Below, in pieces: positions 1 to 25,600 of a DNA stretch of 42,498 nt. How positions within the stretch are numbered: the first letter of the stretch is position 1; each line of letters starts with the position of its first letter. The stretch is from contig CAYHLN010000002.1 in NCBI GenBank assembly GCA_964357505.1, positions 1 through 42,498 on the forward strand. Reading direction: 5' to 3'. Origin of the DNA: Candidatus Woesearchaeota archaeon. Lineage in GTDB: Archaea; Nanobdellota; Nanobdellia; Pacearchaeales; GW2011-AR1. The position numbers and the translations under genes were made by a program. The notes beneath the pieces are model-generated. The model was not told the origin of the DNA and did not search any database. It was given only the letters and a program-made list of their open reading frames with translations.

Positions 1-1290
1 AATTTCAATATGAATACTTGGGTCTTCTTTACCAACCTTACGCAGCACATCAATCAGCTTAGGCAGATCAGCAGATCGTACCACTTCAATCGACTTAGTG
101 ATAACGGGCTGGAAGATGTGCTTGATTTCTTCAAACGGTTGATCTTCTTGGGTAAGGATCGTGTCCCCAACCTCAGTATTGAGCCCAACAATAGCAAGAA
201 TATTACCTGCAGGTACCGCGTCAAGCTGCTTAGGCTTGATACCTTCATAGACAAGTACTTGCTGCACACGATATTTCTTCTTTTGCATCGTTGAGTAGAG
301 TTCCATACCATTGGTGATCGTCCCCGAATATAATCGTCCTGCATACACTTCCTTCCCAACACGTGGATCAATGATTACTCGCGTAACAACGAAGGCAACT
401 TTTCCATCTTTATTACAAGTCATCAGATCCTCACCAAGCTGTGAGTTAAGATCTCCCTTCCAGATCTTAGGAATACGATAGACCTGTGCATCAAGAGGGC
501 TCGGTAGGTGCTTAACGACCATATCCAAAATAACTTCATGCAATGGAGCATTCTTCCAGGTCCAGTCCTGTCGCTCTGCCTCTTCAAGTTCATAAATAGA
601 GTAAATGTCCTTGAAGCTAATGGCACGCTTCTTCATGTACGGCACCGAGAGCGCCCAATTCTCTCTCGCGGAGCCAAATGCAACGCTTCCATCCGCTACA
701 TTCACTTGCCACTTCTGCGCAAGTTCCGGTTCAGCAATCTCTTGTAGGAGCAAGTTAAACTTGCTGATAATCTTCATGAAACGCTCTTGCATTTGCTCGG
801 GCGTTACTTTCAACTCTTTGATCAGCCGATCCACTTTATTGATAAACAGCACAGGTTTGACACGCTCACGTAATGCTTGCTTCATAACTGTTTCAGTCTG
901 CGGCATGATCCCTTCAACTGCACATACAAGCACAACAGTACCATCAATCGCTCGCATTGCTCGAGTCACGTTACCTGAAAAGTCAACGTGGCCTGGCGTA
1001 TCAATCAAGTTAATTAAATATTCTTCCCCATGAAATTCGTGCGGCATGCTTACGTTTGCTGCATCTACGGTCATCAAGCGTTCTTGCTCGTCCTTATGTT
1101 GCCAGGTCGCCATGCCTTCTTCCAGGTCGCCGGCATTCTTATTCGACATCATGCCTGCAGCCGCAAGCAAATTATCAGTAAAAGCAGTTTTTCCGTGATG
1201 TATGTGCGCGCTCGTCGCTATATTACGAATGTTTTTCTGATTGCTCGTCATTCGATCAATCTTCTCAAGTCCTGTCTCTTTCTCTACCAT
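1..1290 (-). CDS. fusA: Translation elongation factor aEF-2, N-terminal 430 codons (C-terminus lies beyond the window edge)
   Basis: Reverse translation from the ATG at 1290-1288 gives MVEKETGLEKIDRMTSNQKNIRNIATSAHIHHGKTAFTDNLL...LINLIDTPGHVDFSGNVTRAMRAIDG...FINKVDRL. These are the G1 (AHxxHGKT), G3 (DTPGH) and G4 (NKxD) motifs of EF-2/EF-G. The frame stays open to position 1, which explains its absence from the complete-ORF track. Confidence 0.93.
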   Translation of the reverse strand, partial: MVEKETGLEKIDRMTSNQKNIRNIATSAHIHHGKTAFTDNLLAAAGMMSNKNAGDLEEGMATWQHKDEQERLMTVDAANVSMPHEFHGEEYLINLIDTPGHVDFSGNVTRAMRAIDGTVVLVCAVEGIMPQTETVMKQALRERVKPVLFINKVDRLIKELKVTPEQMQERFMKIISKFNLLLQEIAEPELAQKWQVNVADGSVAFGSARENWALSVPYMKKRAISFKDIYSIYELEEAERQDWTWKNAPLHEVILDMVVKHLPSPLDAQVYRIPKIWKGDLNSQLGEDLMTCNKDGKVAFVVTRVIIDPRVGKEVYAGRLYSGTITNGMELYSTMQKKKYRVQQVLVYEGIKPKQLDAVPAGNILAIVGLNTEVGDTILTQEDQPFEEIKHIFQPVITKSIEVVRSADLPKLIDVLRKVGKEDPSIHIEI

Positions 1291-1316
1291 CGTCAGTATA
1301 GCTTTGTGCGAAAGAG

Positions 1317-1329
1317 GCTTTTTAAATCT
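1317..1329 (-). promoter_or_regulatory. TATA-box-like promoter motif upstream of fusA (coding-strand AGATTTAAAAAGC)
   Basis: The plus-strand 13-mer gctttttaaatct is identical to the one upstream of rps12 (5792-5804). Its centre lies about 32 nt upstream of the fusA ATG. Confidence 0.45.
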
Positions 1330-1436
1330 TGCCGCTCATTTTTGACACATTGTCCGGAACATATTCAGCCGATACAGCACTAGATACATCAAACATCCCT
1401 AAGAAGAAAGGGGCCATAACGTGCCCGGTTAAGAAT

Positions 1437-1453
1437 AAAAAAAATAAAAAAAA
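1437..1453 (-). terminator. Oligo-T termination tract (T8-A-T8 on the minus strand)
   Basis: The plus strand reads A8-T-A8 about 20 nt downstream of the stop of the small minus-strand gene 1476-1619. Oligo-T tracts are the usual archaeal termination signal. Confidence 0.45.
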
Positions 1454-1475
1454 TAAAGATAAGGTATAGGCTACC

Positions 1476-1619
1476 TTACTTGCCACCCATCATACCGATG
1501 GAGCCTATAATTGCAAGAACTCCGCCGATTGCAGGCAACCAATAATTAGCGCCCCACCATTGACCAACTACTGCGATAATTCCGCCAACGAGGGTAAGCC
1601 ACATTTGCCATCCAGCCAT
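1476..1619 (-). CDS. Small hydrophobic protein (47 aa, two predicted TM segments, Gly/Trp rich)
   Basis: Translation is MAGWQMWLTLVGGIIAVVGQWWGANYWLPAIGGVLAIIGSIGMMGGK. A strong SD (AAAGGAGGTG) lies about 12 nt upstream of the ATG and an oligo-T tract follows. The ORF is below the track length cutoff. Confidence 0.6.
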   Translation of the reverse strand: MAGWQMWLTLVGGIIAVVGQWWGANYWLPAIGGVLAIIGSIGMMGGK

Positions 1620-1703
1620 TTTTTTTATTACACCTCCTTTTGAGTATGCTTATAGTAAGAAACGGTACTTAAAAAGGTTTCCCCGAATGTAATTAACACG
1701 AAC

Positions 1704-2669
1704 TTATGTATCAAGAAATATACCCTGAGGGGCAACATCTCCCTTAAGAATTTCAACATTTGTATAGATATCGTGTATCTCCATTCTTACTCCAAGCTCG
1801 TTTCTGAACTCAAGAAGGATCGTTCTCAAATCGTGCGAATTCTTCGCAATAACTCCAACATCTACATCCCACTGCTCATGTCCCAAATACTTGTAAAAAT
1901 AAAAAACCCTCGGGTGTGCTCGCAAAAAAGACTTTAGAACCTCATCAGCAAGCTCTACATCTAACTTAAGCTGCAAATTGTAAAGCTCGTAACCAAGTTT
2001 AGTCGCATCAATAGAAATCGTATATCCTTCAATCACCCCTAATTTTTCAAGATGCTTGATACGGTATTTTACTGCATTGGCACTGAGGTGTGTTTTAGAA
2101 GAAAGTTCAACATAATCCGCTCGCGCATCTTCAGAGAGCAAATGCAGTATTTTCTTATCTATGGCATTAAGTTTCACGAGAGACATATCCTTGGGGCGAA
2201 TCTTTCTATCACTTGCCCCAATAATCTTCGCCGGATAGATTTCCTGCTCTGTCGAACTGTTAGTAACCAAATAATTCTTGATATGGCGTCTTCCCTCCTG
2301 AAGAATTTCCTTAATGATGCTCTTTAAATGATTCTTATCTCTCGATAGAATATCAAAAGCCACATTCCACTTGCCCACCACTACTCCGACATACGTAACA
2401 AACGGATGGTTCGTAATAAATGAAAAGAATTCTTTTTCTTCTGCAAGACTGATGCCCTTTAACTGGATGCCACATCCATTTCTAAAATAACCGAGTTTTT
2501 CAAGATTAATAATGGGATAGAAATGGGCAATAATGTTTTGCTCCACAAGCTTACGAATGCGATACGCTACAACCTCTCTGCTCAATCCAACTTTCCTGCC
2601 CAGCTGGTTGAACGGCATTCGCGAATTCTTAAGCAACTCCGCAAGTATCTTTTCGTCTTTCTTATCCAT
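1704..2669 (-). CDS. Tandem (double) Lrp/AsnC-family transcriptional regulator, two HTH + RAM modules in one chain
   Basis: Module 1 reads DKKDEKILAELLKNSRMPFNQLGRKVGLSREVVAYRIRKLVEQNII. Module 2 reads DAIDKKILHLLSEDARADYVELSSKTHLSANAVKYRIKHLEKLGVI. Each is followed by about 80 aa with an Lrp effector-domain pattern (...LGY...). The 321 aa length is about twice a normal Lrp. Confidence 0.85.
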   Translation of the reverse strand: MDKKDEKILAELLKNSRMPFNQLGRKVGLSREVVAYRIRKLVEQNIIAHFYPIINLEKLGYFRNGCGIQLKGISLAEEKEFFSFITNHPFVTYVGVVVGKWNVAFDILSRDKNHLKSIIKEILQEGRRHIKNYLVTNSSTEQEIYPAKIIGASDRKIRPKDMSLVKLNAIDKKILHLLSEDARADYVELSSKTHLSANAVKYRIKHLEKLGVIEGYTISIDATKLGYELYNLQLKLDVELADEVLKSFLRAHPRVFYFYKYLGHEQWDVDVGVIAKNSHDLRTILLEFRNELGVRMEIHDIYTNVEILKGDVAPQGIFLDT

Positions 2670-2691
2670 AATTTACATTAATGATAAATGA

Positions 2692-2699
2692 TATATAAA
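2692..2699 (-). promoter_or_regulatory. TATA box (TTTATATA on the minus strand) for leaderless lrp-like gene
   Basis: The centre is about 26 nt upstream of the ATG at 2669. No SD is present. Confidence 0.5.
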
Positions 2700-2734
2700 T
2701 ATTTGCATAATAGTAAAATAATAAGCCCAAGATA

Positions 2735-2742
2735 TTATATAA
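2735..2742 (+). promoter_or_regulatory. TATA box (TTATATAA) for the leaderless four-gene operon
   Basis: The centre is about 26 nt upstream of the ATG at 2764. No SD is present. It is divergent from the lrp-like promoter in the same 94-nt AT-rich spacer. Confidence 0.5.
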
Positions 2743-2763
2743 GAGACAATTAACTACTTTTAC

Positions 2764-3480
2764 ATGACAGAAAGAAATACCCTAGATAATGCAATAGAGG
2801 ATGCCTATAGAGATAGCTGGCTCAAATATCGTATGGCTTATGCACCCACTCAGGAACTAAGGGCAATTATAGAAAAGGCAGAAAAAGAAGAATTAGATGA
2901 AGCTAAACGGAAAATTATAGAAAATTTTGCAGAAAATCATCAAGGCATAGCCGATGTGGTGAAGGGGAAGGCAACATTTTATTCTTATGGAGGACCAATT
3001 CTAGAACATGTAAAAAATGTTGAAGAACATTATGAGAAGAGAAGATTTGGTTTCGTATCAAGAAGGGCATTATGTGGCAGAGATAGTAATCTTCACACTT
3101 CACGAGCAGCAAGAGACGCTTTTAATTACCTAACAACAGAAAGAATAATCGACTCCGAGAGCTTCTTTACTCCTAAATTAGTTTATCCAGGATCGGCCAC
3201 ATTTGAAAGATGGGTAGAAAATACGATGGGCTATGTAGGAGGAGTTTTATTAGTCTCATCAGCCGTTGCATCAATCGGAGCTTGTAAGGGATATGTTTTG
3301 GGAGAGCAAGATGGAGCTTTCCTAGGGGCAGCTATAGGATTTCTTTTACCGAATCTTATTTTGGGTGTAGGGCTGCCTCTGATAAGTCAAAAATTCTCCC
3401 GGTGTAAAATCTCAAAACAGAGAGAAAGGTTTGAGGCGGCTTTGAAGAGTTTAGATTCTCATATAAGGGGAGATAAATAA
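2764..3480 (+). CDS. Hypothetical protein P1: about 170-aa helical soluble N-domain plus two Gly-rich TM helices (GxxxGxxxG glycine zipper GAFLGAAIG)
   Basis: This 238-aa ORF is the first gene of a coupled operon. Its C-terminus reads MGYVGGVLLVSSAVASIGACKGYVLGEQDGAFLGAAIGFLLPNLILGVGLPLI. I recognise no family motif. Confidence 0.7.
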   Translation: MTERNTLDNAIEDAYRDSWLKYRMAYAPTQELRAIIEKAEKEELDEAKRKIIENFAENHQGIADVVKGKATFYSYGGPILEHVKNVEEHYEKRRFGFVSRRALCGRDSNLHTSRAARDAFNYLTTERIIDSESFFTPKLVYPGSATFERWVENTMGYVGGVLLVSSAVASIGACKGYVLGEQDGAFLGAAIGFLLPNLILGVGLPLISQKFSRCKISKQRERFEAALKSLDSHIRGDK

Positions 3481-3481
3481 T

Positions 3482-3742
3482 ATGACAAGAGATAAACCAA
3501 GTGAATTAGAAGCTATTGGCCCCTTTATAGCACTTAGTCCGATACCTGCTACAGCAATAGGCTTTGTTTTTTCCACCAATGAAAGTATTGGCTATTCAAT
3601 CTTTTACAGCGCAGTGATAGCTTCGGTATACACTCTTATCGCTCTGGTTGGTCCTTTATGTGCGTATCAGGATGAGAAAGAAGCTTACGAAAACGAACGA
3701 AAACGTCGAAAAATATCCGTGCTAGAGGGAAAAATAAAATGA
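3482..3742 (+). CDS. Hypothetical small membrane protein P2 (86 aa, 2 TM, basic/acidic C-tail)
   Basis: It starts 1 nt after the P1 stop. An SD-like GGGGAG lies about 10 nt upstream. It shares a GPLC motif with P3 (LVGPLCAY). Confidence 0.65.
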   Translation: MTRDKPSELEAIGPFIALSPIPATAIGFVFSTNESIGYSIFYSAVIASVYTLIALVGPLCAYQDEKEAYENERKRRKISVLEGKIK

Positions 3743-4056
3743 CTCTTGAAAATGAGTTGCCTGAAAACAGAGTGTTCAGTTCAAGATTAGCATTTGCACT
3801 AAACAGATATCACGAAGTAAACAGGTTTCATCTTGAAAATGGAGCAGAATTACGTAGATCTCCTAACTTTGCAATAAAGGCAATTGGAATTCTTGGGCCA
3901 TTATGTCATATGGCCCTTGCGTATTCTCCGTTAGGACTCGTAGCAATATTAGTAGCAATGGAAGATGCTGAATATTCCGAAAAGAGAGGAGGTTACGTTG
4001 GCAGTACCTTCAATCTTGACAGAGATCCTACAGAAAGCAACGAGGCGGTACAATGA
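3739..4056 (+). CDS. Hypothetical small membrane protein P3 (105 aa, hydrophobic core ILGPLCHMALAYSPLGLVAILVAM)
   Basis: It overlaps P2 by ATGA. An SD-like GAGGGA lies upstream. Confidence 0.65.
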   Translation: MTLENELPENRVFSSRLAFALNRYHEVNRFHLENGAELRRSPNFAIKAIGILGPLCHMALAYSPLGLVAILVAMEDAEYSEKRGGYVGSTFNLDRDPTESNEAVQ

Positions 4057-4415
4057 ACAGAAAAACACAAAATCGCCTGCTAAATGGATCACTGTGGGCA
4101 ATTCCTTGTATGCTTATTGGATCTTACTGTTTTAATATAGGATTAAATGCGTATAGAATAAGTCAATATAGGCAGCTAGGCGAAGGATACAGTGTGCGCG
4201 AGACAGCCTCTGAAAGAATATTTACTCTTGGCAACGGACGCGGAGGTAGAGACTATAATAAAAACGGGACGCTCGATCAAGTTTTTGTGACAATGGCACT
4301 TTCTCCTATGATGGGCGGTCCAGGTTTTGCATCATGGCCGATTAAAACCACCGAAGACGACCTTAAGAGATTCGAACGGGCACATTATTTGCTCAATAAA
4401 AATAAGCAAAAATAA
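4053..4415 (+). CDS. Hypothetical protein P4 (120 aa, N-terminal signal-anchor, extracytoplasmic domain with a DxNxNGxLD Ca-binding-loop-like motif)
   Basis: It overlaps P3 by ATGA. An SD-like GAGGCGG lies upstream. The TM segment is LWAIPCMLIGSYCFNIGL and the motif is RDYNKNGTLDQ. Confidence 0.65.
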   Translation: MNRKTQNRLLNGSLWAIPCMLIGSYCFNIGLNAYRISQYRQLGEGYSVRETASERIFTLGNGRGGRDYNKNGTLDQVFVTMALSPMMGGPGFASWPIKTTEDDLKRFERAHYLLNKNKQK

Positions 4416-4427
4416 GACTATAAAAAA

Positions 4428-5024
4428 TTATCGCGCAGCGTCAGCTTGCTTCTCAGCGTCATTCTTTTTATTCATGGCAAAGCTTTCCATGTTACCTTCA
4501 GAGGCAAGCATAATCTCTCTTGCTAGACTGTCCGCCATTTTGGTTTTCTTACCAAATGACTTTTGATAGGAACCCTGTACGAACCATCTTGTTGCGATAT
4601 TAATGCGCCTCAACGGACTCACGTCTACTGCCTGCGGATAGCGAGCTCCACCATATTCAATAGTAGTCGTCTCATCTCGCGGAGAGGCAGTTTCAATTGC
4701 CTTTACCAACACCTGTAAAGGGTTCTGCTTGGTCTTGGCCTCAATAATGCGCAGCACATCCAAGATAGTCTTCATATTTCGATTATATTTGCCTGAAGAC
4801 CAAGACGTAATGATCTTTTGCTTCTTACCCAAATGTCCAGGCACGGCAAGATGATTTGCAAGCTTCTCAAGAATATGCACTTTTGCATTTCCAAACTTTC
4901 CGATAGCACGACCGTGGCTCTTCAAAATAAGTCGTGGTTCAACATTCAAGTACGGCTTTAATGCCAAATCACTAACAACAACATCTTTCGAATCGTAGAT
5001 ACCAAATAATTTTAGTTCCATCAT
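4428..5024 (-). CDS. rps7: 30S ribosomal protein S7 (uS7, archaeal type)
   Basis: The sequence contains LFGIYD...HGRAIGKFGNAKVHILEKLANHL...NPLQVLVKAIETASPRDETT..YGGARYPQAVDVSPLRRINIA. An SD GGTGGAG lies upstream. Confidence 0.95.
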   Translation of the reverse strand: MMELKLFGIYDSKDVVVSDLALKPYLNVEPRLILKSHGRAIGKFGNAKVHILEKLANHLAVPGHLGKKQKIITSWSSGKYNRNMKTILDVLRIIEAKTKQNPLQVLVKAIETASPRDETTTIEYGGARYPQAVDVSPLRRINIATRWFVQGSYQKSFGKKTKMADSLAREIMLASEGNMESFAMNKKNDAEKQADAAR

Positions 5025-5356
5025 GCTAAACGCTCCACCAAAAGTTTTACTGCTGCACCACGGCGCTGCTGATATGCTCGAAATGCGTTCGTACCGAATC
5101 CATCCCTATAGCGATTCTCCACGCCATCAATAAGCTCTCGTTCTCCCGCAGTTGGTCGTGCGAGATCAAAAAGCGCATAGCTTTCGTCAACAGCCATTCC
5201 TTCCCTAAGCTCAATGATCACTTCATCTGCATGCTCTTGATAAGAAGCGGTAATGCCTGCACGCTGAGCAGTTCTCCCCAGTTTGTCTACCAATCGTGCA
5301 CTCAAAGCCATAGGTACGCGAGCAGGTGCTTTAGCAGGAGCGTCAGACGTTATCAT
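5021..5356 (-). CDS. Hypothetical 111-aa protein with an N-terminal ribbon-helix-helix-like segment, inserted between rps12 and rps7
   Basis: The ORF shares 1 nt with the rps12 stop (TAATG) and 4 nt with the rps7 start (ATGA). The segment RVPMALSARLVDKLGRTAQRAGITASYQEHADEVIIEL fits the strand-helix-G.(S/T)-helix pattern of CopG/Arc/MetJ. It is Ala/Arg rich and looks more GC-rich than its neighbours by eye. Confidence 0.55.
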   Translation of the reverse strand: MITSDAPAKAPARVPMALSARLVDKLGRTAQRAGITASYQEHADEVIIELREGMAVDESYALFDLARPTAGERELIDGVENRYRDGFGTNAFRAYQQRRGAAVKLLVERLA

Positions 5357-5772
5357 TATCTTCTACCCTTCTCGATCTTACCCTTCACTAACAAGCGAAG
5401 TGGCTGATCATTTACTTTGATAACTTGATATCGAATTCCAGGAATATCTCCCTTGGTACCCCCATAAGCGCCACCAATGCGCTCGATAATCACTTCATCG
5501 TGTTCATCAACATATTTCTGGGCAAGGTTACCTGGAATAAATGCTCCAACAGAAATACCATTCTTAATCAACTGCACCTTGCAGCACTTTCTCATAGCAG
5601 AGTTTGGCTGTTTTGCTTCTTTTTGGAACTTACTTACAACAATACCTTTTGCCTGATGTGCTCCGTCGGCAGGATCGTATTTCTTCTTGGTGTCTTTTTT
5701 ACGGTAGTATTTCTGGCTCCATCTAAACTTACGAGCATCTTTTAATTTTTTTCGTGCATTCATTAAACCCAT
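5356..5772 (-). CDS. rps12: 30S ribosomal protein S12 (uS12, archaeal type)
   Basis: The sequence contains [25 protein letters not shown]...[13 protein letters not shown]...[15 protein letters not shown] place the start at the ATG at 5772 (MGLMNARKK). The track ORF begins at an upstream TTG at 5775. Confidence 0.95.
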
Positions 5773-5791
5773 CAAGTCTTAGCGAAAACAT

Positions 5792-5804
5792 GCTTTTTAA
5801 ATCT
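5792..5804 (-). promoter_or_regulatory. TATA-box-like promoter for rps12 (same 13-mer as upstream of fusA)
   Basis: The plus strand reads gctttttaaatct. Its centre is about 26 nt upstream of the ATG at 5772, which is consistent with a leaderless transcript. Confidence 0.5.
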
Positions 5805-5858
5805 GTCGTCAAGAAATGTAAAGAGAAAGCTTAAAAGGGCATTCGAGGATTAAATAAG

Positions 5859-6221
5859 ATGGTTCATAGAAGAACGCCGCTTAAGGACGTAATTACTCGA
5901 TGTATGGAGGGTTACCCTGAGGCGCGACTTGACGAGCACCCATTCACTACGTGGATGTCAAAACCAAAGGCAGGGTATTCAATATCCCTAGGAGCAAGCA
6001 AGGAAAGAATCATTATAGCTGAAAGTAATTATGTCTGGCAAACAAATCAGGGAAAAAGACGAAGAGAAGCAACACTGTATGCTATGGCTACAACAAATGG
6101 AAGATCTCCAGAGGAGCTATTGCGTGATATTCATGGCACCCGAGAAAGAGAAGTCTGTGTCAGAGATATAGAGCAAATGGTAAGGGATTACCTGGAAAGA
6201 AACGCACAGGCATTTACCTAA
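5859..6221 (+). CDS. Hypothetical 120-aa protein encoded antisense to the flanking nusA and rps12
   Basis: It is the only ORF of at least 60 aa in the 442-nt gap between nusA and rps12. A TATA-like CTTAAAAG lies about 25 nt upstream and GAGGA about 10 nt upstream. Its stop overlaps the nusA stop by 4 nt. Confidence 0.5.
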   Translation: MVHRRTPLKDVITRCMEGYPEARLDEHPFTTWMSKPKAGYSISLGASKERIIIAESNYVWQTNQGKRRREATLYAMATTNGRSPEELLRDIHGTREREVCVRDIEQMVRDYLERNAQAFT

Positions 6222-6631
6222 ATAATTCTTAATGGCGTACCAAAATTATCCTGAACAATTTGCGCAAGTTCTTCCAATCGTTTCTTATTGCGCCCAATAA
6301 GAGCAGCTTTACTCTGGCTCCCCGCAGTCAAGACCAGCTGGCCGTCACGCATTTCAAGCGACTTAAACGTAACGGGCTCAACAATATCTTGCAAGAATCG
6401 CGCTACATCATCCATACCAGTAGACTCTGAAATAATCTTAACTCTCTTCCCTAACGTTAGTTGAATCTGCCGTACATTGCCGCCTTGTGGGCCAACAGCA
6501 CGCCCGATCATATCACGAGGTACAGCAAAGATAATAGTATTGTTATACGTAAAACACTTACTCGTTTTGACATGTGCCACTCTGCTTAAGAGGTTAATAT
6601 AACGCATGGTCTGCATGTCAATGGTAGCCAT
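6218..6631 (-). CDS. nusA: Archaeal NusA-like transcription termination/antitermination factor (two KH domains)
   Basis: The 137-aa size and the GxxG KH motifs (IGRAVGPQGGNVRQI and AALIGRNKKRLEEL) fit. It occupies the conserved position after rpoA. Confidence 0.88.
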   Translation of the reverse strand: MATIDMQTMRYINLLSRVAHVKTSKCFTYNNTIIFAVPRDMIGRAVGPQGGNVRQIQLTLGKRVKIISESTGMDDVARFLQDIVEPVTFKSLEMRDGQLVLTAGSQSKAALIGRNKKRLEELAQIVQDNFGTPLRII

Positions 6632-6649: not shown

Positions 6650-9600
6650 TTATTCAGATTTTTTCCCCGCACCTTTACGTACTAAGGGGCCAGTCACCTT
6701 TACCAACAGTCCAGGTAATCCAGTTCCGACAGGCACTGGCTGGTTGAGCATGATATTTTCAATAACGGATTCAAGTTCATCTTTTCTGCCTTGAATGGTT
6801 GCATTGATAAATTGTTTATCAGGCGTTTCGAATGCAGCTCGAGCAAAGATACTTGATTTATCAGAGACAATACCCATTCTGGTTACTCCCTTTACAACAC
6901 CAGATGAAGTCATCGCATCGGCAATCAAATCAAGATGTCTGATGTTAATTTCCAATCCCTGTCCTTCAAGAACTTTCTTAATTTCATTCACAATGGTCTG
7001 TCGTGCAGCTTCAATACCAAGCACTTCAGCAGTCTCATGAATATCGTTTGAACTTATTCGATCCCTATCAGCGCCTTTTATCAACAGCGTATCTTTGATA
7101 TTGCTCCCAGAGGTAATAACAACGAATTCCCTGCCTCTATTTGCAACAACAACTTGATTAACGCCTTTGACGCCAGAGACAATTGCTTTCTTGATTTTCT
7201 CTTTAAGCTTGTAAATTTCCTTGAAGCCAAGATCTTGTACTTGAAGCACGATAGAGTTCTCGCGTGCCTTGCAGACGAATCCCTTGTCATTAAGACGATC
7301 AGCGATAGTCTGAGCACCAGCGTGTACGGTGCGCAGCGCATTGCTATCAAGCTCAATCTCAATTTTCTTACCGCCAAAGTCAATGCGTACTTCTCGCGTA
7401 ATTTCCTCAAGCATAACTTCTTTGATTTTCTCAGCAATCACTCGTGCATCCTTTTCATTGTTATACTCCTTATCCAAGTAAACAGTCATCTGAGGTGTTG
7501 AGGGCTTCTTACGAGCGTCAAAGATTTCAATCAAACGAGGTAGTCCAAGCGTAACCTGCATTTCTGCAACTCCCGCAGAGTGGAATGTTCTCAGAACCAT
7601 CTGTGTGGATGCTTCTCCAAAGGATTGTGCAGTTACGACTCCGACGCATTCACCTGGAGGGACTTTCATACCAAGATGCAATCCTGAAACATCGACTCCA
7701 TCTCCGCCATACAAGAATTGAACAATATTTCCAGAGGCATCGCGTACGGTCTCATCATATTCAACTTTCAAGTCTTGTAATGCGCTTACTAAACGGCGAT
7801 ACAAGTAACCAGACTTTGGCGTCCTCAGAGCAGTATCCATCAGAGCGTCTCTTCCAGTAATTGCTCCAAAGAAGAACTCGGTCGGTTTAAGCCCATCAAT
7901 AAAAGAAGATTTGATAAATCCACGAGCTGCCGGTTTCAAATCTCCACGCTCGAAGAATGAGAGGGTACGATTCGTGTATCCAAAGTTGATTCGATGGTCC
8001 CATAGGATTTGCTGACCAACGCAACAGCCAATTTGAGTAATATTTAGTAAGCTTCCTGCAGCGCCTGCAGAGATCATCTTATTGACGTTGCTATCTACAG
8101 GGAAGTTCGTTCGAACAATCTTACTTGCTTCTGTTCTTACCTCGTTTAACGTCTGAGCAATACGCACTTCACGTGATTCTTCCAAGGTCTTTCCTGGAAT
8201 CAACATCAGCTTACCAGAAGCAGCTTCACGGATAATTTCATCTGTTTTATGCTCAGCATCTTTAATGACCTGGTTAGTTAGCTCCTTCATTTTAGCCGGA
8301 ACGTTAAGATCCTGCAATGAGAGTGTGTATCCTTTGCGAGAAAGGTACCAGGTACCAAGTGCAAAAGCGCGTCTAATAGTCTCCAATACTTCTTGGCGTG
8401 AAACTTGCTTATCAAGCGTCTTGATAAGTTCGCCTTCTTCTACTCCAATAGTCGAGCTTCCAATCGAATCAGTAGGAATTTTAACATCAACGCCCTTTGG
8501 CAAGATGTGTGCGAAGATTTCTTTACCATCAATTTCCTTGCCCTTTAAAACCGCGCTCACACCAGAGCTGAAAAGCAATTGGTCAGCATCAGCCTTGCTC
8601 AATGACGACTTACTCAGCAAGTAAACGCCTGTAATTCCATCTGCAATACATCCTACAAGATTAGTATTGTTCTTGGAAGAAATAATGTTGTTCTTCACGT
8701 CCAGCAGCACGGTAGCTTCAGCGCGTGCTTCTTCTGTCTGAGGTGAGTGAATGTTTACTTCATCTCCGTCGAAGTCAGCGTTGTAAGGGAATGCAACTGC
8801 AGGATGGATTCTAAATGTTCTATCAGGCAATACACGCACGTAGTGAGCCATCAGGCTTTGCTTGTGAAGAGAAGGGTGACGATTGAAGAGTACAACATCT
8901 CCATCGCGCAAGTGTCGTTCAACCTTATAGCCTGGCTGAATTTCATTACACAAATCTTCCTTCAGCTCTTCAGCAATACGTTTTTTCTTTCCATCAGGGC
9001 GCACAACATAGTTAGCTCCGGGGTATTTCTCGCCCTGCCTAATAACATCCTTAAGGCTTTCCAAATTAGCAGTAGTCACACTCTCAGAAACAGTAATAAT
9101 ACGAGCAATATCAACAGGCACACCAATTTCATTGATAGCAAGGAACGGATCAGGTGACACGACAGTTCTTCCAGAGAAGTTAACACGCTTTCCGGCAAGG
9201 TTCTTTCTAATACGACCTTCCTTACCCTTAATACGTTCAGTGATCGTTTTTAGCGGCTGTCCTGAGCGATGACGTGCAGGCGGAATGCGAGTGATAGAGT
9301 TATCAAAATAGGTCGTCGTATGGTACTGCAATAAGTCCCATAGATCTTCAATAATAACTTCTGGTGCTCCCGCATTCAAGTTCTCCCAGAGTCGCTGATT
9401 AGCGCGGATAATATCTGAAAGCTTGTGTGTCAAGTCATCTTCGGAACGCTCTCCCGACTCAAGCGTGATCGATGGTCGAACGTTAACGCTCGGCACAATA
9501 AGCTGAGAAAGAATAGCTGATTCAGGTCTACAGGTACTTGGATTTACTCCAACCTTCTTCATCTGCTCGTCTGTAATCTTGAGCAACATCTCACGAATTT

Positions 9601-10090
9601 CAGTAGGGAAGATGCGTCGCTTACCCAATAAGAACTGACTTGGCTTTTCTAAGCGTACTCGCTCTTGCTCTTCATTACAATGAGGACACTTTTTCTTATC
9701 GCGTGCCTTCTTTGCGCGTTCAAGAGGGCTAAACGTTGCAGCCTTCTCATCTGAAAGCAAGATCTTGCCACAATGGTGACAGAAGCTTCTCAAAAAGAGT
9801 TCAATCAAAGGAATATATTTGATATGTAAAACAGGACGAGCAAACTCAATCATTCCAGGGTAACCGGGACAATCCTTCATCGTAGCTCCATCAGTTCTAC
9901 ATCGAACGCCAGGATCAATAGCGCCCAATCGCAGATCCATCAAACCACCATCAACCGGGAAGCCATCAACGTCATACAGTTCAGGTGTGACAATCTTTGC
10001 CACGCTTAACTTCTTGATAATCTCGGGGCTAACTAGGGCGAACTTCAGCGCTTTTACCTTCTTCTTGATTACGTCGTCGATGTTATTCAT
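6650..10090 (-). CDS. rpoA: DNA-directed RNA polymerase subunit A, unsplit A'+A'' fusion (1146 aa)
   Basis: N-terminal Zn motifs are present (CHHCGK...CPHC). The catalytic NADFDGDEVN motif and the bridge-helix region GRDALMDTALRTPKSGYLYRRL are present. The A''-type trigger-loop region TAQSFGEASTQMVLRTFHSAGV...TLGLPRLIEIFDARK follows in the same frame. The junction is around 7655-7690. Confidence 0.95.
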   Translation of the reverse strand: MNNIDDVIKKKVKALKFALVSPEIIKKLSVAKIVTPELYDVDGFPVDGGLMDLRLGAIDPGVRCRTDGATMKDCPGYPGMIEFARPVLHIKYIPLIELFLRSFCHHCGKILLSDEKAATFSPLERAKKARDKKKCPHCNEEQERVRLEKPSQFLLGKRRIFPTEIREMLLKITDEQMKKVGVNPSTCRPESAILSQLIVPSVNVRPSITLESGERSEDDLTHKLSDIIRANQRLWENLNAGAPEVIIEDLWDLLQYHTTTYFDNSITRIPPARHRSGQPLKTITERIKGKEGRIRKNLAGKRVNFSGRTVVSPDPFLAINEIGVPVDIARIITVSESVTTANLESLKDVIRQGEKYPGANYVVRPDGKKKRIAEELKEDLCNEIQPGYKVERHLRDGDVVLFNRHPSLHKQSLMAHYVRVLPDRTFRIHPAVAFPYNADFDGDEVNIHSPQTEEARAEATVLLDVKNNIISSKNNTNLVGCIADGITGVYLLSKSSLSKADADQLLFSSGVSAVLKGKEIDGKEIFAHILPKGVDVKIPTDSIGSSTIGVEEGELIKTLDKQVSRQEVLETIRRAFALGTWYLSRKGYTLSLQDLNVPAKMKELTNQVIKDAEHKTDEIIREAASGKLMLIPGKTLEESREVRIAQTLNEVRTEASKIVRTNFPVDSNVNKMISAGAAGSLLNITQIGCCVGQQILWDHRINFGYTNRTLSFFERGDLKPAARGFIKSSFIDGLKPTEFFFGAITGRDALMDTALRTPKSGYLYRRLVSALQDLKVEYDETVRDASGNIVQFLYGGDGVDVSGLHLGMKVPPGECVGVVTAQSFGEASTQMVLRTFHSAGVAEMQVTLGLPRLIEIFDARKKPSTPQMTVYLDKEYNNEKDARVIAEKIKEVMLEEITREVRIDFGGKKIEIELDSNALRTVHAGAQTIADRLNDKGFVCKARENSIVLQVQDLGFKEIYKLKEKIKKAIVSGVKGVNQVVVANRGREFVVITSGSNIKDTLLIKGADRDRISSNDIHETAEVLGIEAARQTIVNEIKKVLEGQGLEINIRHLDLIADAMTSSGVVKGVTRMGIVSDKSSIFARAAFETPDKQFINATIQGRKDELESVIENIMLNQPVPVGTGLPGLLVKVTGPLVRKGAGKKSE

Positions 10091-13000
10091 ATTTGTTCTT
10101 TAGCTCGAAAGTGGTGAGGATATGCATCGCCAGCAACTCATCGATCAGTAGTTTAAATGCGTAGGAAACTTCAATTGGTTCAACATCAGTGCTGCCAGTA
10201 ATTGGACAGTACGTCTTGTTACGGATTCGATCGCGAATGGCTAGATGGCCTGACTGCGTTGCAACCCATAACGTCGTCTTATCAGAATCATATCGTTCCT
10301 TGAGCAACAGTGACGCTCCATGGCCCACCAGTGCTTGCTGCTCCATTTCTCCCAGACGCAATGCGCCACCTCGAGCACGGCCTTCTGTTGGCTGTCGCGT
10401 TAGCAAGGCAACTTTACCGGATGCTCGTGCATGGATCTTATTCTTAACCATGTATTTCAACTTCAAGTAGTACATGTTACCCACGTAAATCTTAGCATCC
10501 ATCTTCTTACCACTAACTCCATCATACATGGTTTCCTTACCATCAAAGCGGAAGCCCATACTTTGTAATTGCGCCTCAAGGTCAGGAACGCTCTGGCCAG
10601 AGAATGGCGTCCCGTCAAGCACTTTACCAGTAACTGCGGCGGTCTTACCAGCAAGCATTTCAATCAAATATCCAACAGTCATACGGCTTGGAATACCATG
10701 CGGGTTAAAGAGTAAATCAGGTGTAATACCTCGTGACGTGAATGGCATATCACGCGGATCTGCAATCATACCAACGACTCCTTTCTGTCCGTGTGGTGTC
10801 GAGAACTTATCTCCTGGTTCAGGTAAACGCGAGTCACGAATACGTACTTGAGCAATCTTATTACCATCTCGATCAGCAGTAATGAACACGGCATCTACAA
10901 TACCTTCTTCTTCCTGTCGCATTGCGGTACTTGCTTCTTTCTTAGATTGAATACTGATGTCTTTTGCCTCTGACAGGAATTTAGGAGGAGTAACCTTACC
11001 AATAATAACATCCGCTGAGTGAATAGGTGCTTCTGGGTAAACGATACCATCATCTTCAAGGAACTGATACGATTTCTCAGTTCGATATCCTGCTACGTCC
11101 TTGTCAGGAATAAGGATCTCATCTCTCAAGCCCCCTGTGTAGTGCAATTCAGTTGAATCATAGGGCCTAAAGTACGTGCTTCTTCCCATACCGCGCTGGA
11201 TGCTTGCTTTATTAAGAATAACTGCGTCTTCAACGTTATACCCGTCAAAAGGCATAATAGCAACAACAAGATTCTGTCCTGCTGGGTACACGTTAAGCGT
11301 GTTGAATACGAAGCTTCTGACCAATGGCTTTTGCGGATAGTGCAAGATAGAAACATCCGTGTCTAGTCGCGTCAAATAGTTAGCAGCATAAATACCTAAG
11401 GACTGCTTCAGAGTCTTACTTCCTCTGTTAAGACGAGAAGACTGGTCGTGGTTTCCAAAGGGTACCAGGGAAGTGATCAGACCAAAAACGTCAATGCTGT
11501 CAATTTCAAGGTGTGTGTGCTTTGCATTCAAATCGTCAACAGACAAAGAGACAAGCGCATCTTCTTCTTCAGCAGCATCTAAATATTCAATGACTCCTTG
11601 CGTAACCAAATCGCTCCAGCTCAGCGAACCTTGCTCCAAAAGAACCTGGTGTTCATCCTTCAACTTGCTTACTCCCTGAGAAACAATTAACAACGGTCTC
11701 AAAACACGGCCCACTTCAGTTGAAATAACAACAGAGTTAGCTTCATTCTGGCTTCTAATGCTCAATTCAACAGGGAGCTCGCCTCTGCGTCGAGCAGCTC
11801 GAATATCTTTAACAAAGCTGACAGGGTCAGCAGCGACGCCAATAAATCGTCCATTGAAGAATACATCTCGTCCAGCACCTTCGCCCAAGCCAATGCCTTG
11901 AATCTTCTTGATAATAGGAACTTCATCAACAATAATGGCAGTCGAAATTCGACTCAAGAGCGCAAGGTTCTTTCGTAATCCGATTTCTGTTCCTTCAGGC
12001 GTTTCAGTAGGACAGAATCGCCCATAGTGGGTTGGATGCAGCGTACGTGCCATGAAGTTCTCCTGGTCGTCAGGCAACATACTCGAAACACGCATCAGCT
12101 GAGAGAGAATAGAAAGATAGTTGGTCTTATCCATATTTTGCGTTACGCCCGTTCGCTCGCCAATCCATGCTCCTGTTGCAATAGCGCTTTCAATACGCTG
12201 GCTGAATAAGGTTGATTTTGCAATAGTCTTCACAGAATAAAACTTCTTTCGTTTTACAACTTTCTGCAAAGAGTATTGAATATCTCTCACTAGAATATTC
12301 AAGTTAACACGGAAAAGATCAGAAAGCAAGTCTCCAGTAAGCTTTACACGCTTGTTTGCATAATGGTCTTTATCAGTTCGTAAGCTTGGATCAGTTTTAG
12401 CAGTCAAGAATTGCTTGATAAATTTACATAACGTTAATGCCTTTTCTTGTCGAGCATTCTTATCAACACCAATATGGGGCAGGAAGAAGCGATCAACACG
12501 CTCTTTAGTACGATCAAGAATTTCCTTCTTTGTTCCTTGGATGCCTGATTTCTCTGCAATGGCAAGCAACGCATCATCAGTACTTTGAATGTTAGCGAAT
12601 TCATAGAAGTTAACAATCAAACAGTCATCTTCTTTTCCAATATGTTTAGCAATATCTGCTTCAGTGCCCATTCCTAAAGCCTTAAGCAAGACGAAACATG
12701 GAATATTCTTCAATCGGCTGAAAGAAACATCTAAGATTCCTTCGCCTGTCTCGCTGACAGTAGTAGGAATCTTGTACGCACCACGCTGAGAGAATACACG
12801 TAAGATAAGCCCATGACGCCCATTTTCAATAAAGGGTTGGTTAGATGCAAGGTCTTCAGTCATAACCATAATACGTTCATTTCCATTGACAATAAAGTAT
12901 CCTCCAGGGTCGAGCGGATCAATATAGTTCTCCCGTAGCTGATTAGTGTTCATACCATACGTGGTGCAAATCGTGCTCTTCACCATCACGGGCAAGCGCC

Positions 13001-13325
13001 CAATCTCAACTTCTGCGCTTTCATTCTGAGCGCCAAATTTAACACTAAGCTCAACAAAAACCGGTGCTGAATAGGTCAAATTTCGTAAACGAGCTTCAGT
13101 AGGAGTAAGGATATTGACGCTACCATCAGCTTCAATGACGTCTGGCTTGCCCATTCTAATCTTGCCAAGCTTAACTTCAACATCTTCCTGCTCAATGCCT
13201 TCATTGACTTCTTGTACAATATGTTGTATCCTACGTGCAATAAAATCGTTAAAGCTTCTCAAGTTAGACTCAACAACCGAGTGCTGCTGCAAATACTTCT
13301 TAACTAACAAGTGTTTATCGGCCAT
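10083..13325 (-). CDS. rpoB: DNA-directed RNA polymerase subunit B (unsplit, 1080 aa)
   Basis: Motifs present are GDKFSTPHGQKGV, GEMEQQALVGHGA and NPHGIPSRMTVG. It overlaps the rpoA start by 8 nt. Confidence 0.96.
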   Translation of the reverse strand: MADKHLLVKKYLQQHSVVESNLRSFNDFIARRIQHIVQEVNEGIEQEDVEVKLGKIRMGKPDVIEADGSVNILTPTEARLRNLTYSAPVFVELSVKFGAQNESAEVEIGRLPVMVKSTICTTYGMNTNQLRENYIDPLDPGGYFIVNGNERIMVMTEDLASNQPFIENGRHGLILRVFSQRGAYKIPTTVSETGEGILDVSFSRLKNIPCFVLLKALGMGTEADIAKHIGKEDDCLIVNFYEFANIQSTDDALLAIAEKSGIQGTKKEILDRTKERVDRFFLPHIGVDKNARQEKALTLCKFIKQFLTAKTDPSLRTDKDHYANKRVKLTGDLLSDLFRVNLNILVRDIQYSLQKVVKRKKFYSVKTIAKSTLFSQRIESAIATGAWIGERTGVTQNMDKTNYLSILSQLMRVSSMLPDDQENFMARTLHPTHYGRFCPTETPEGTEIGLRKNLALLSRISTAIIVDEVPIIKKIQGIGLGEGAGRDVFFNGRFIGVAADPVSFVKDIRAARRRGELPVELSIRSQNEANSVVISTEVGRVLRPLLIVSQGVSKLKDEHQVLLEQGSLSWSDLVTQGVIEYLDAAEEEDALVSLSVDDLNAKHTHLEIDSIDVFGLITSLVPFGNHDQSSRLNRGSKTLKQSLGIYAANYLTRLDTDVSILHYPQKPLVRSFVFNTLNVYPAGQNLVVAIMPFDGYNVEDAVILNKASIQRGMGRSTYFRPYDSTELHYTGGLRDEILIPDKDVAGYRTEKSYQFLEDDGIVYPEAPIHSADVIIGKVTPPKFLSEAKDISIQSKKEASTAMRQEEEGIVDAVFITADRDGNKIAQVRIRDSRLPEPGDKFSTPHGQKGVVGMIADPRDMPFTSRGITPDLLFNPHGIPSRMTVGYLIEMLAGKTAAVTGKVLDGTPFSGQSVPDLEAQLQSMGFRFDGKETMYDGVSGKKMDAKIYVGNMYYLKLKYMVKNKIHARASGKVALLTRQPTEGRARGGALRLGEMEQQALVGHGASLLLKERYDSDKTTLWVATQSGHLAIRDRIRNKTYCPITGSTDVEPIEVSYAFKLLIDELLAMHILTTFELKNKYE

Positions 13326-22658: not shown

Positions 22659-25600
22659 TTATTCCCCGCAACCAGAACGTGACGTCTGCTTACAACTTGT
22701 ACAGACAATAGCGCAATTCCCAATACGCTGGGCAGGTCCACCACACAAAGGACACAACAAGCCCTCTTGTAATCCAAAGTCTTTAATCGTCTTCTGCTCA
22801 TCTTTTGAATCATCAAATGCCTCAAGCTCGAACTCAACCTTCCCTGCGCTGCCGCTAAAGTGATTGAGCATGAACTGCGCTACATAGTCAACAATCGAGC
22901 TTGCAGTTCTAATCTTAGATACACGCTCATCAACTTCTCCGCCCTGAATGTTCTTTACAAATCCCGATGGCTCAAACTTCTGATGTCTGAACTTATTGAA
23001 AAGCACTTCAACAGGAATACCATACTGCAAGTTCAACGATACAGAGGTTGCCCAGGTATCCATAAGCCCACGGATAGTAGAGCCTTCCTTGCTCATGGTC
23101 ACGAAAATCTCTCCTGGTTTACCATCATCGTACAAGCCAACCGTCAAATAACCCTTATGCCCTGCAATTTCAAAGCGGTGCGTAATAGCCTTACGTGTTT
23201 GAGGCATATCTCTCTGGCGCACCGTCACAAGCTGATTATCTTTCTTGACCATCTCGCCTTCAGTCTTCTTCGTATTAAGCGGCTGGCTGCGCTTACTATT
23301 CTCTCGATAAATAGCAACTGCCTTCAGTCCCTGCTCCCAGGAAAAGATATACGCATCCATAATATCTTCAACAGTCGAGTGCTCAGGCATATTGACCGTC
23401 TTGCTAATCGCACCAGAGATAAACGGCTGACTTACTGCCATCATCTTGATATGCCCTTTGTAATGGATTGCACGCTTTCCTTTCCCGGGCTTAAAGGCGC
23501 AATCAAACACTCCAAGGTGCTCATCACGCAACGCTGGTGCACCTTCAATCATATCATTCTTATCAATATAGTCAATGATATCAGTAATCTCCATATCGCT
23601 ATAGCCCAATGTCCTCAGCGCCAAAGGTACACTTTGATTCACAATCTTCAGCATGCCTCCGCCAGACAGCACCTTGTACTTAACCAGCGCAATATCTGGC
23701 TCAATGCCCGTTGTGTCACAATCCATCATAAACGCGATAGTATTATGACTGATAAAACCATTAGCAGTATATGTAACATTTTCTGGAACAGAAATATCGT
23801 ACGTTGGTTGCACCCCGCCATCAATGTTAGAACCTATGACATCGTAGAAAAACTGAAGTGCCCACAAAAGTTGAGGATGCTTAGTGTCCTGATAGAGTTG
23901 AATCGCTCTTTCTCGTGGAATCGCATGATGCCTCTTCAAAGACAACAAAACAGTATCGCGATATTTGCTCCCCACAGGTACCGCTTCTTCAATAATCTCT
24001 TCAGGTAAATACACATAATCTCTCTTGCCAGTCTGCGAACTGCGCGATGCGACTGCATCGGTCTTCCTTGCCCCCATGAAACCAATTGCCTCCAAGAACA
24101 GTTTATTGTACGAAATATTTTTCAGCCTCATCACATAAACAGGGGCTGCCCCATATCCCGAAACATTCTCTTTTGTAGAAGTAGGGTAGCCAAGGCTTAA
24201 AAGCAACGTTCTAATTTCGCCAGCAAATTCCTTACTTGCAGTACAGATGGAAGGATTCCCGAGCCCAACAGTTCCGTCAGCTTCAAAAAGCCCCCTCAAA
24301 AACGCGCCATAAATTTTCCTATCGTTGGTGCATAATATAGAATCTGGAATATGGGGGGTATAACCCTTGCCAGAATGGCTTTCAGAAGGTCTCAACTTAG
24401 AAAATCCGCAGGCATCCCACCACATAGTCAAGGGAACAGAATGAACAGCGACTTCCTTGTATCCCTCCTTCTGCGACAGATGAATCCCCAGATTAAAGAC
24501 AGATGTAACAAGCTGTCTCAACCGTTCAACAACATCCTCATCCTTATTATCAACGCAAAATCGTAGCCCCTTGCTATGGAGACTCCCATCACCCATAAAG
24601 TAGCCAATAAGCTCTGCAAGTTCAGCAGTCATTTTTTTAGGCGTCACCAAGTTAAAGTCAGTATTCCAATGCAGTTCTGGAGCTGGAGGCAAGAGCACGT
24701 CTTGCTCATCGCCAAAAATAGTATTCATGGCCAAAGGAACAACATCTCCTTCCTGGATTTCATCAAATCTCTTCCAAGTCCATTGCCTTGTTTCAGCATC
24801 CACGATCTTTACTTTATGTTTCTCCGTTCCCTGGATTTCATATCCTGAAGAAGTCACGATTTTTCTCGTGCTCGCTTCTCCGTTAATATAAAATTTCGTC
24901 GCCTCCTTTGGACCCTCGTCAGTCATCACCTTAAAAGAGACATCTTGCCATTGGTTACCTTTTTTATTTCCCAGACTCCGTAGCCTTACAAGTCCCTTAT
25001 TCGTAGAAATCAGGGAACTCTCAACAAGGCATCCTGTTGGTGCCAGTACACTTGCTTGCGCATTCCGGTACCCATGCTTCTCGCCCAACGTCACGGCCTC
25101 GCTCCAACAATCCCATGCATCATTCGCCAAATAACGCAGTTCAGAAGGCATTTTATTGACTTCAATCTTCTTCACCGCATCACGATGCATGCGCATGACT
25201 TCAAGCATTGGTTCCTTATTCTTCATGTAGCCTGGGAACGGCCCCACAGCGCGAGCAATCTCTGCAGACATCCGATATGCCTCACCACACATAATAGCAG
25301 TCAATGCCGCAGCCACAGCTCGCCCTTCATCAGAATCATAGGGCAACCCATAGCTCATCAATAACGCTCCAAGATTAGCATATCCCAAACCAAGCGGCCG
25401 GAAGTCGTGAGAGTTACGCGCAATCTTCTGAGTCGGATAACTTGCGCCATCAACAATCAAATCCATAGCCAGAATAAATGTGCGCACCACACTCTTGTAT
25501 TTCTCAACGTCAAACTTGCCATCTTCAGTTCTAAATTTCATTAAATTGATCGACGCCAAATTACAAGCAGAATCATCAAGGTGCATATATTCACTGCACG

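Follow-up and report, generated by a model that had tools for sequence, protein, structure and literature searches.

What is a 111-codon open reading frame (ORF) doing between rps12 and rps7, the genes for ribosomal proteins S12 and S7? The question is raised by contig CAYHLN010000002.1 (assembly GCA_964357505.1) of a Candidatus Woesearchaeota archaeon, of which positions 1 to 42,498 of the forward strand were analyzed, hereafter called the window. A preliminary description of this DNA had read the ORF as a ribbon-helix-helix (RHH) protein made in step with S12 and S7, and had considered an operon autoregulator, an orphan antitoxin or a new ribosome-associated factor. Our analysis points to another answer: the ORF is probably a real, lineage-specific passenger gene, housed in a variable slot between rps12 and rps7, and one that would have to be translated to keep rps7 coupled to rps12.

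The ORF lies on the same strand as its two neighbors and fills the space between them exactly, with the coordinates originally given for it (Table 1). Both junctions were also correct to the nucleotide: the rps12 stop and the start of the ORF share one nucleotide (TAATG), the stop of the ORF overlaps the rps7 ATG (ATGA), and the motif resembling a Shine-Dalgarno (SD) sequence for rps7, GGTGGAG, is indeed present at the 3' end of the ORF. Co-oriented genes that overlap by 1 or 4 nt, or that lie a few nt apart, have the geometry of coupled genes (PMC10666635), and the ORF displays both a -1 and a -4 overlap.

The coding status of the ORF was assayed by several measures. The chance that a random frame of 111 codons stays open ranges from P=0.0007 (window composition) to P=0.0024 (composition of the ORF itself), and the remaining minus-strand frames over the ORF contain 7-9 stops. 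GC content (guanine plus cytosine) shows a marked periodicity over the three codon positions (GC1/GC2/GC3 = 0.67/0.48/0.35), and synonymous codon usage falls at the 84th percentile of 111-codon windows taken from the long genes of the contig. As previously noted, the protein is rich in Ala (17%) and Arg (12%) and the DNA is richer in GC than its surroundings (50%, vs 40-43% for the neighbors and 42% for the window). This enrichment is not a mark of foreign DNA, since the surplus is carried by codon positions 1 and 2, where Ala and Arg are specified, while GC3 and codon usage are host-like; a foreign origin was therefore ruled out. The identical protein, with the same neighbors, was found in four further contigs from Hainich groundwater. 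By these measures the ORF appears to be a genuine protein-coding gene, native to its host.

The codon-aligned antisense frame (5030-5407, plus strand) is also open, over 109 codons, as CTA and TCA codons are missing from the ORF and TTA occurs just once, near its 3' end. In this frame GC periodicity is inverted and the stretch before 5231 contains no start codon; an antisense gene was rejected.

The ORF appears to be an orphan. In a word-indexed search of 5.8 billion clusters it matched only itself, and when 1.84 billion representatives were scanned exhaustively with phmmer, the ORF was recovered along with two artefacts (P0002 and P0003); these are long repetitive proteins whose scores were summed over several stretches, and they were rejected as weak homologues. 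No homologue was detected in viral contigs or in the genome and metagenome loci fetched for this study. Searches of PHROGs, of PADLOC (run on the ORF and five nearby ORFs) and of viral contigs were all empty, and a defence or viral origin was not retained. Likewise, no ribosomal protein or translation factor family was matched in Pfam, NCBIfam or PDB sequence searches.

The neighborhood of the ORF is shared with its relatives, even though its sequence is not. Queries with S12 yielded 80 genome loci and queries with S7 yielded 80 loci from metagenomes; together they gave 127 distinct loci containing both gene ends. The two genes essentially abut in 64 of them, with the consensus junction ...GAGAAGGGTAGAAGA-TAA(A)ATG, and are separated by at least 120 nt in the other 63. 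The rule that rps12 and rps7 are adjacent thus does not hold in this clade, and related genomes do carry ORFs in the same spacer, albeit apparently unrelated ones. In 59 of the 63 occupied loci the gap is fully tiled by co-oriented ORFs, unbroken up to rps7; the occupied gaps contain one ORF (51 loci), two (11 loci) or three (1 locus), of 48-158 aa (median 96.5). This strict co-orientation and tiling is specific to the S12-S7 gap, in contrast to the neighboring nusA-rps12 junction (see below). The pattern was seen in two independent collections, and the slot appears to be a clade-wide feature of Nanoarchaeota (DPANN archaea of the Pacearchaeota/Woesearchaeota type), the group to which the genome studied here belongs.

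The junctions of the slot ORFs are as constrained as their orientation: 124 out of 135 fall between -8 and +2 nt, TAAAATG being the commonest. The first ORF of a slot begins at the position where rps7 usually starts, and the end of the last one supplies a new SD-like motif. Comparing the junctions of 80 loci, we found that the slot ORFs of relatives carry 3'-terminal motifs of the GGAGG type, equivalent to the GGTGGAG described above. The proteins themselves are extremely diverse, as 75 distinct slot ORFs were distributed over 62 phmmer clusters. Scanning a first set of 43 against Pfam and PHROGs gave nothing credible, with isolated matches of single members at E~0.003-0.009. GC1 is the highest of the three codon positions in 69 of the 75. 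We define the slot-ORF class as co-oriented ORFs that tile the gap, with junctions of at most 2 nt, a 3' SD-like motif and no Pfam match; the 111-codon ORF has all of these properties. The preliminary description had considered such a gene unusual. What stands is a coding ORF embedded in an operon through -1 and -4 overlaps, but its exceptional character was overstated, the slot being filled in half of the relatives.

The evolution of slot ORFs was followed in homologous pairs through the ratio of nonsynonymous to synonymous substitution rates (dN/dS). In four pairs it was significantly below 1, with values of 0.35 (p=0.003), 0.43 (p=0.03), 0.27 (p=5e-6) and 0.47 (p=0.006); in two of these genome pairs (L005/L085 and L058/L061), rps7 gave 0.04-0.05. 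Divergence is rapid, one slot ORF being 66% identical where S12 is 99% identical, and occupancy is patchy on the S12+S7 tree. Slot ORFs would thus be real but fast-evolving proteins, several of them under weak purifying selection. The 111-aa protein is probably helical and, by analogy with these counterparts, under weak purifying selection, and its role appears to be dispensable and lineage-specific.

One slot family, of about 90 aa and referred to as A3/A4, could be traced further. It is present in genomes that have no more than 62-66% identity between their S7 proteins, and sister genomes have another ORF in the slot or an empty one. Four further contigs encode the family, all of them between S12 and S7. 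Its AlphaFold model is a small, compact, beta-rich domain with a predicted local distance difference test (pLDDT) score of 74.9. The top three Foldseek matches of this model in the PDB are RimM ribosome maturation factors, at E values (0.11-1.2) that are not significant. Members of this beta-rich family are P0006-P0013 and L037:1096-1362, L106:177-455, L110:635-907 and L126:638-892.

Other loci display traces of turnover. The slot is occupied by three cassettes in L085 (282-1351) vs two in its close relative L005 (3419-4130), and each cassette ends with ...GTTGCTTAAAATG. Between these two genomes, cassette a has a synonymous divergence (dS) of 0.02 and is free of mismatches over about 240 nt (four consecutive 60-column blocks), against a dS of 0.50 for rps7 and a background divergence of 8-9%. 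Such near-identity suggests recent recombination. In L076 the slot contains tandem paralogues. In L069, the first 18 nt of the slot ORF at 3417-3770 repeat the beginning of rps7 (TAAAATGACAGAGCAAGA), and both proteins consequently begin with MTEQE. This repeat is a footprint seen in L069 only, and target-site duplication was not retained as a general insertion mechanism.

L005 and L085 are also the nearest relatives of the genome studied here (S12 93% and S7 87% identical, synonymous sites saturated), and they contain different cassettes. When the ORF was aligned semi-globally with the 74 other slot ORFs, the S7-proximal cassettes of these two loci (L005b and L085b) gave the best score (Z=4.1). 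Once the last 9 residues, where the protein overlaps the junction motif, were removed, the value dropped to 1.8-2.9; BLASTP gave no match. Orthology with these cassettes is accordingly weak, the signal coming mainly from the C-terminal tail and the junction; the junction itself is probably homologous. A second possible origin was suggested by the DEVIIE segments of the ORF (5209-5227, within HADEVIIEL) and of rps12 (5481-5499, within EHDEVIIER), which match in frame at 17 of 19 nt (P=0.005-0.006 by codon shuffling). In 86 comparisons of slot ORFs with flanking genes, P values of this kind occurred near the rate expected by chance, and an origin by partial duplication of rps12 is unproven.

How such a slot could be maintained is suggested by its anatomy, read together with published work on other organisms. 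In the archaeon Haloferax volcanii, -1 and -4 overlaps were shown by experiment to give tight termination-reinitiation coupling, which is nearly lost across gaps of about 20 nt (PMC10666635). By extension, a single transcript probably spans rps12, the ORF and rps7. Ribosomes that terminate on rps12 would reinitiate on the ORF at TAATG, in what was ancestrally the start context of rps7. Those that terminate on the ORF would in turn reinitiate on rps7 at ATGA, aided by the SD-like motif in the final codons of the ORF. If translation of rps7 depends in this manner on ribosomes arriving from rps12, any insertion must be translated and tightly joined, and must rebuild an SD-like motif. Insertions would then persist only as co-oriented, fully translated ORFs with tight junctions, which is the arrangement observed in 59 of the 63 occupied loci. 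For the inserted gene, the slot would offer transcription and translation at no extra cost. Its highly conserved flanks would favor homologous exchange. The contents of the slot turn over by gain and loss, by duplication and by recombination at the junction motif.

Several observations weigh against the passenger-gene reading, or narrow it. With +8.5 points, the ORF shows the strongest GC enrichment among the 75 slot ORFs, and its composition is unlike that of the others; it may therefore not share their biology. It has no sequence variants, and purifying selection on it is extrapolated from unrelated ORFs of the same slot. Among these, pairs other than the four cited, mostly saturated, gave dN/dS values of 0.6-1.0 that are not significantly below 1. 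The putative promoter and terminator of the rps12-ORF-rps7 unit were identified by eye only. Finally, "passenger gene" describes a mode of expression and maintenance and not the activity of a protein. Among the possible roles of the protein, a weakly selected, dispensable, lineage-specific protein ranks first, followed by a translated spacer, a ribosome-associated factor and an RHH regulator.

The ORF might instead be a translated spacer or proto-gene, in which only openness and the junction signals are selected and the peptide has no function of its own. We regard this as unlikely, yet as the strongest of the competing explanations. It would account for the extreme diversity of slot contents, for the 43 ORFs scanned against Pfam without a credible domain and for the lack of any homologue of the ORF. 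Coupling depends on an ORF without interruption (PMC10666635), the SD and junction motifs determine which residues stand at the C-terminus, and some homologous pairs have dN/dS values approaching 1 (0.96, 0.6-0.7). However, the four pairs at 0.27-0.47 are significantly constrained, the A3/A4 family has been kept across distant genomes with a compact predicted fold, and the ORF itself combines marked coding periodicity with host-optimal codon usage. A pure spacer would also be expected to shrink, but the median slot ORF is close to 100 residues long.

Additional ORFs in archaeal ribosomal protein operons have proved to be translation-related. The ORF could encode a factor that associates with the ribosome or helps to assemble the small subunit, specific to its lineage and produced in step with S12 and S7. 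Its tight coupling inside a three-gene S12-ORF-S7 unit is in favor of this role, as is the resemblance of the A3/A4 model to RimM, a 30S maturation factor. Short overlaps are moreover enriched between genes for subunits of heteromeric complexes (PMC10666635). However, the similarity to RimM falls short of significance and was seen for a family other than that of the ORF, which itself resembles no ribosomal protein or translation factor. A core ribosomal role also fits poorly with a slot that half of the relatives leave empty and whose occupants are mutually unrelated. For the ORF taken alone we consider this role improbable. A broader version seems slightly less so, though still doubtful: the slot would be a place where small proteins, once born or captured, evolve fast while being made in proportion to S12 and S7, and some of them, possibly including the ORF, would be lineage-specific accessories of the small subunit or of its assembly. 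If true, this would provide a natural system of ribosome-associated proteins that turn over at the genus level.

The RHH proposal rested on residues 13-52, which by eye fit a strand, helix A, a G-x-T/S turn and helix B. Faint signals go in the same direction. The sole family hint for the ORF is the NCBIfam BrnA antitoxin family, of RHH type (E=0.17, 12 bits vs a cut-off of 60). Aligned by hhalign with an ad hoc mini-profile of seven classical RHH domains, residues 15-37 fall on the strand and helix A in the proposed register (P=0.055, probability 1%). In a single-sequence AlphaFold model, a disordered N-terminal coil (1-15) precedes helices 16-32 and 39-53, separated by a loop (33-38), which is compatible with RHH. 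But each of these signals is below significance. Pfam returned no family, even at E<=10, for either the whole protein or the 52-aa segment, and a sequence search of solved structures gave nothing relevant. The hhalign alignment ends before helix B, and the model, which is all-helical and of low confidence (pLDDT 52.8), has two extra C-terminal helices (70-86 and 89-110). Foldseek found no PDB match with E<2 for this model, a result that is uninformative given its low confidence.

The functions proposed on the basis of this fold fared no better. An orphan antitoxin was not borne out, both neighbors being ribosomal protein genes with no toxin gene adjacent, and PADLOC being empty. A conserved operon autoregulator is disfavored because half of the relatives fill the slot with unrelated proteins; an RHH domain was absent from all 43 that were scanned against Pfam. 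Compared with RHH proteins (CopG/Arc/MetJ, and antitoxins of the BrnA and FitA types), the ORF is similarly small, with a readable N-terminal strand-helix-G-x-T/S-helix and a sub-threshold BrnA match, but it lacks a significant profile match, a toxin partner and conservation, and it extends further at the C-terminus. The RHH reading appears to be a visual resemblance that no test supported, and an RHH autoregulator or antitoxin is slightly less probable than a ribosome-associated factor.

A more convincing RHH candidate appears to lie nearby. An orphan 120-aa ORF (5859-6221, plus strand), located between nusA and rps12 and overlapping the nusA stop by 4 nt, aligned with the same mini-profile at P=1.7e-4 (probability 50%) over ATLYAMATTNGRSPEELLRDIH, and matched the FitA-like RHH family of Pfam at E=0.089. 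The nusA-rps12 junction is variably occupied in about 40% of relatives (L005-L084, upstream of S12, ~1-3000), by ORFs of up to 941 aa on either strand; in L005, the closest relative, the spacing is only 43 nt.

Finally, a regulatory RNA with an incidental ORF, for instance a site of S7 autoregulation as in E. coli rpsL-rpsG, where binding of S7 to the intercistronic RNA represses coupled translation, is highly implausible here: many bacteria do have an extended S12-S7 distance (PMC10931766), but no Rfam match was found at E<=1 in 4300-6300, the folding energy of the region is unremarkable (z-score -0.9), the spacers of relatives share no common sequence, and the frame is full-length, in phase and periodic.

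The passenger-gene reading can be set beside known systems. In the E. coli str operon, additional sequence also separates the S12 and S7 cistrons and translation of rps7 is tied to the upstream cistron, but that spacer consists of some 100 nt of structured, non-coding RNA (PMC10931766), whereas here it is a coding ORF of 336 nt in which no RNA structure was detected. Parallels are also found in the coupled overlapping gene pairs of archaea and bacteria, where -1 and -4 are the two commonest geometries and a short 3' region of the upstream gene holds the reinitiation signal, here GGTGGAG (Huber et al., PMC6728339, PMC10666635). The difference is that the middle gene is hypervariable and lineage-specific, between conserved ribosomal genes, and that coupling is here predicted from anatomy.

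Hypervariable islands can form between conserved genes, and passenger genes ("morons") use the expression signals of an operon. The slot resembles both, being a fixed site between conserved flanks with turnover of orphans, recombination at junctions and borrowed expression of the host operon. It differs by lying inside a ribosomal protein operon, by containing one to three small co-oriented ORFs chained by translational coupling, and by the restriction of the A3/A4 family to the S12-S7 site. Rpp29, a subunit of RNase P, is encoded by an ORF of the archaeal S10/spc cluster that proved to be translation-related. Such ORFs, like the one described here, were small and uncharacterized among ribosomal protein genes, but they are conserved across Archaea, whereas this ORF is an orphan, and half of the relatives have nothing in its slot.

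Coupling geometry, variable islands and passenger genes are thus known; what appears to be new is a hypervariable slot of small ORFs, chained by coupling, within the S12-S7 pair. No prior description of ORFs in the archaeal S12-S7 gap was found in full-text literature searches, which is weak evidence that they are unreported. About half of the 127 related DPANN loci keep hyperdiverse coupled small genes within a gene pair that ranks among the most conserved in biology. The ORF alone is unremarkable without a function; the pattern at the level of the locus is less expected and more useful. The slot constitutes a defined and repeatedly sampled locus for studying gene entry into operons, the constraints of coupling and the rates at which orphan proteins evolve. 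A further possibility is that organisms with reduced genomes possess ribosome-associated proteins specific to their lineage. The slot also calls for caution in annotation, and in marker-gene phylogenomics, where contiguity of S12 and S7 is assumed.

Table 1. Features of the rps12-rps7 region (positions in the window).
Feature	Position	Strand	Remarks
rps12 (uS12, S12/S23e)	5356-5775	minus	Pfam PF00164, E=1e-36
111-aa ORF, Ala/Arg-rich, predicted all-helical, without detectable homologue	5021-5356	minus	
rps7 (uS7, S7/S5e)	4428-5024	minus	Pfam PF00177, E=4e-33
TAATG junction, -1 overlap	5354-5358	minus	A5356 common to the rps12 stop TAA (5358-5356) and the ORF ATG (5356-5354)
ATGA junction, -4 overlap	5021-5024	minus	ORF stop TGA (5023-5021) overlaps the rps7 ATG (5024-5022)
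SD-like GGTGGAG in the final codons of the ORF	5033-5039	minus	8 nt 5' of the rps7 ATG
TATA-like box TTTAAAAA	5794-5801	minus	~22-29 nt 5' of the likely rps12 ATG (5772-5770); inferred from sequence
Oligo-T tracts T6 (4427-4422) and T5 (4414-4410)	4410-4427	minus	directly 3' of the rps7 stop; read by eye
rps12 3' end ...GAGAAGGGTAGAAGATAA		minus	initiation context serving rps7 directly in insert-free relatives; junctions compared in 80 loci

On the minus strand of the window, genes are ordered rpoB (10083-13325), rpoA (6650-10090), a gene for a KH-domain NusA (6218-6631), rps12, the ORF and rps7. The last three look like one short transcription unit, because a TATA-like box lies upstream of rps12 and oligo-T runs follow rps7. 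The box was placed using the archaeal TATA-box spacing rule and would give rise to a leaderless or short-leader transcript of rps12, the ORF and rps7; the oligo-T tracts are likely to act as an archaeal terminator.

Other features of the window were noted. RNA polymerase subunit A is usually split into A' and A'' in Archaea; here rpoA is a single ORF of 1146 aa, and no L30e gene is present between rpoA and nusA. The genes for EF-2, EF-1alpha and S10, which usually continue the archaeal operon after rps7, are absent at rps7. Convergent to rps7, four consecutive small ORFs (238, 86, 105 and 120 aa) occupy 2764-4415 on the plus strand, with stops and starts that overlap or abut; neither Pfam nor PADLOC gave a match for them, and a search of the 80 related genome loci returned no homologue. 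Further away, at 22659-26795 on the minus strand, an intein containing a LAGLIDADG homing-endonuclease domain interrupts a class II ribonucleotide reductase.

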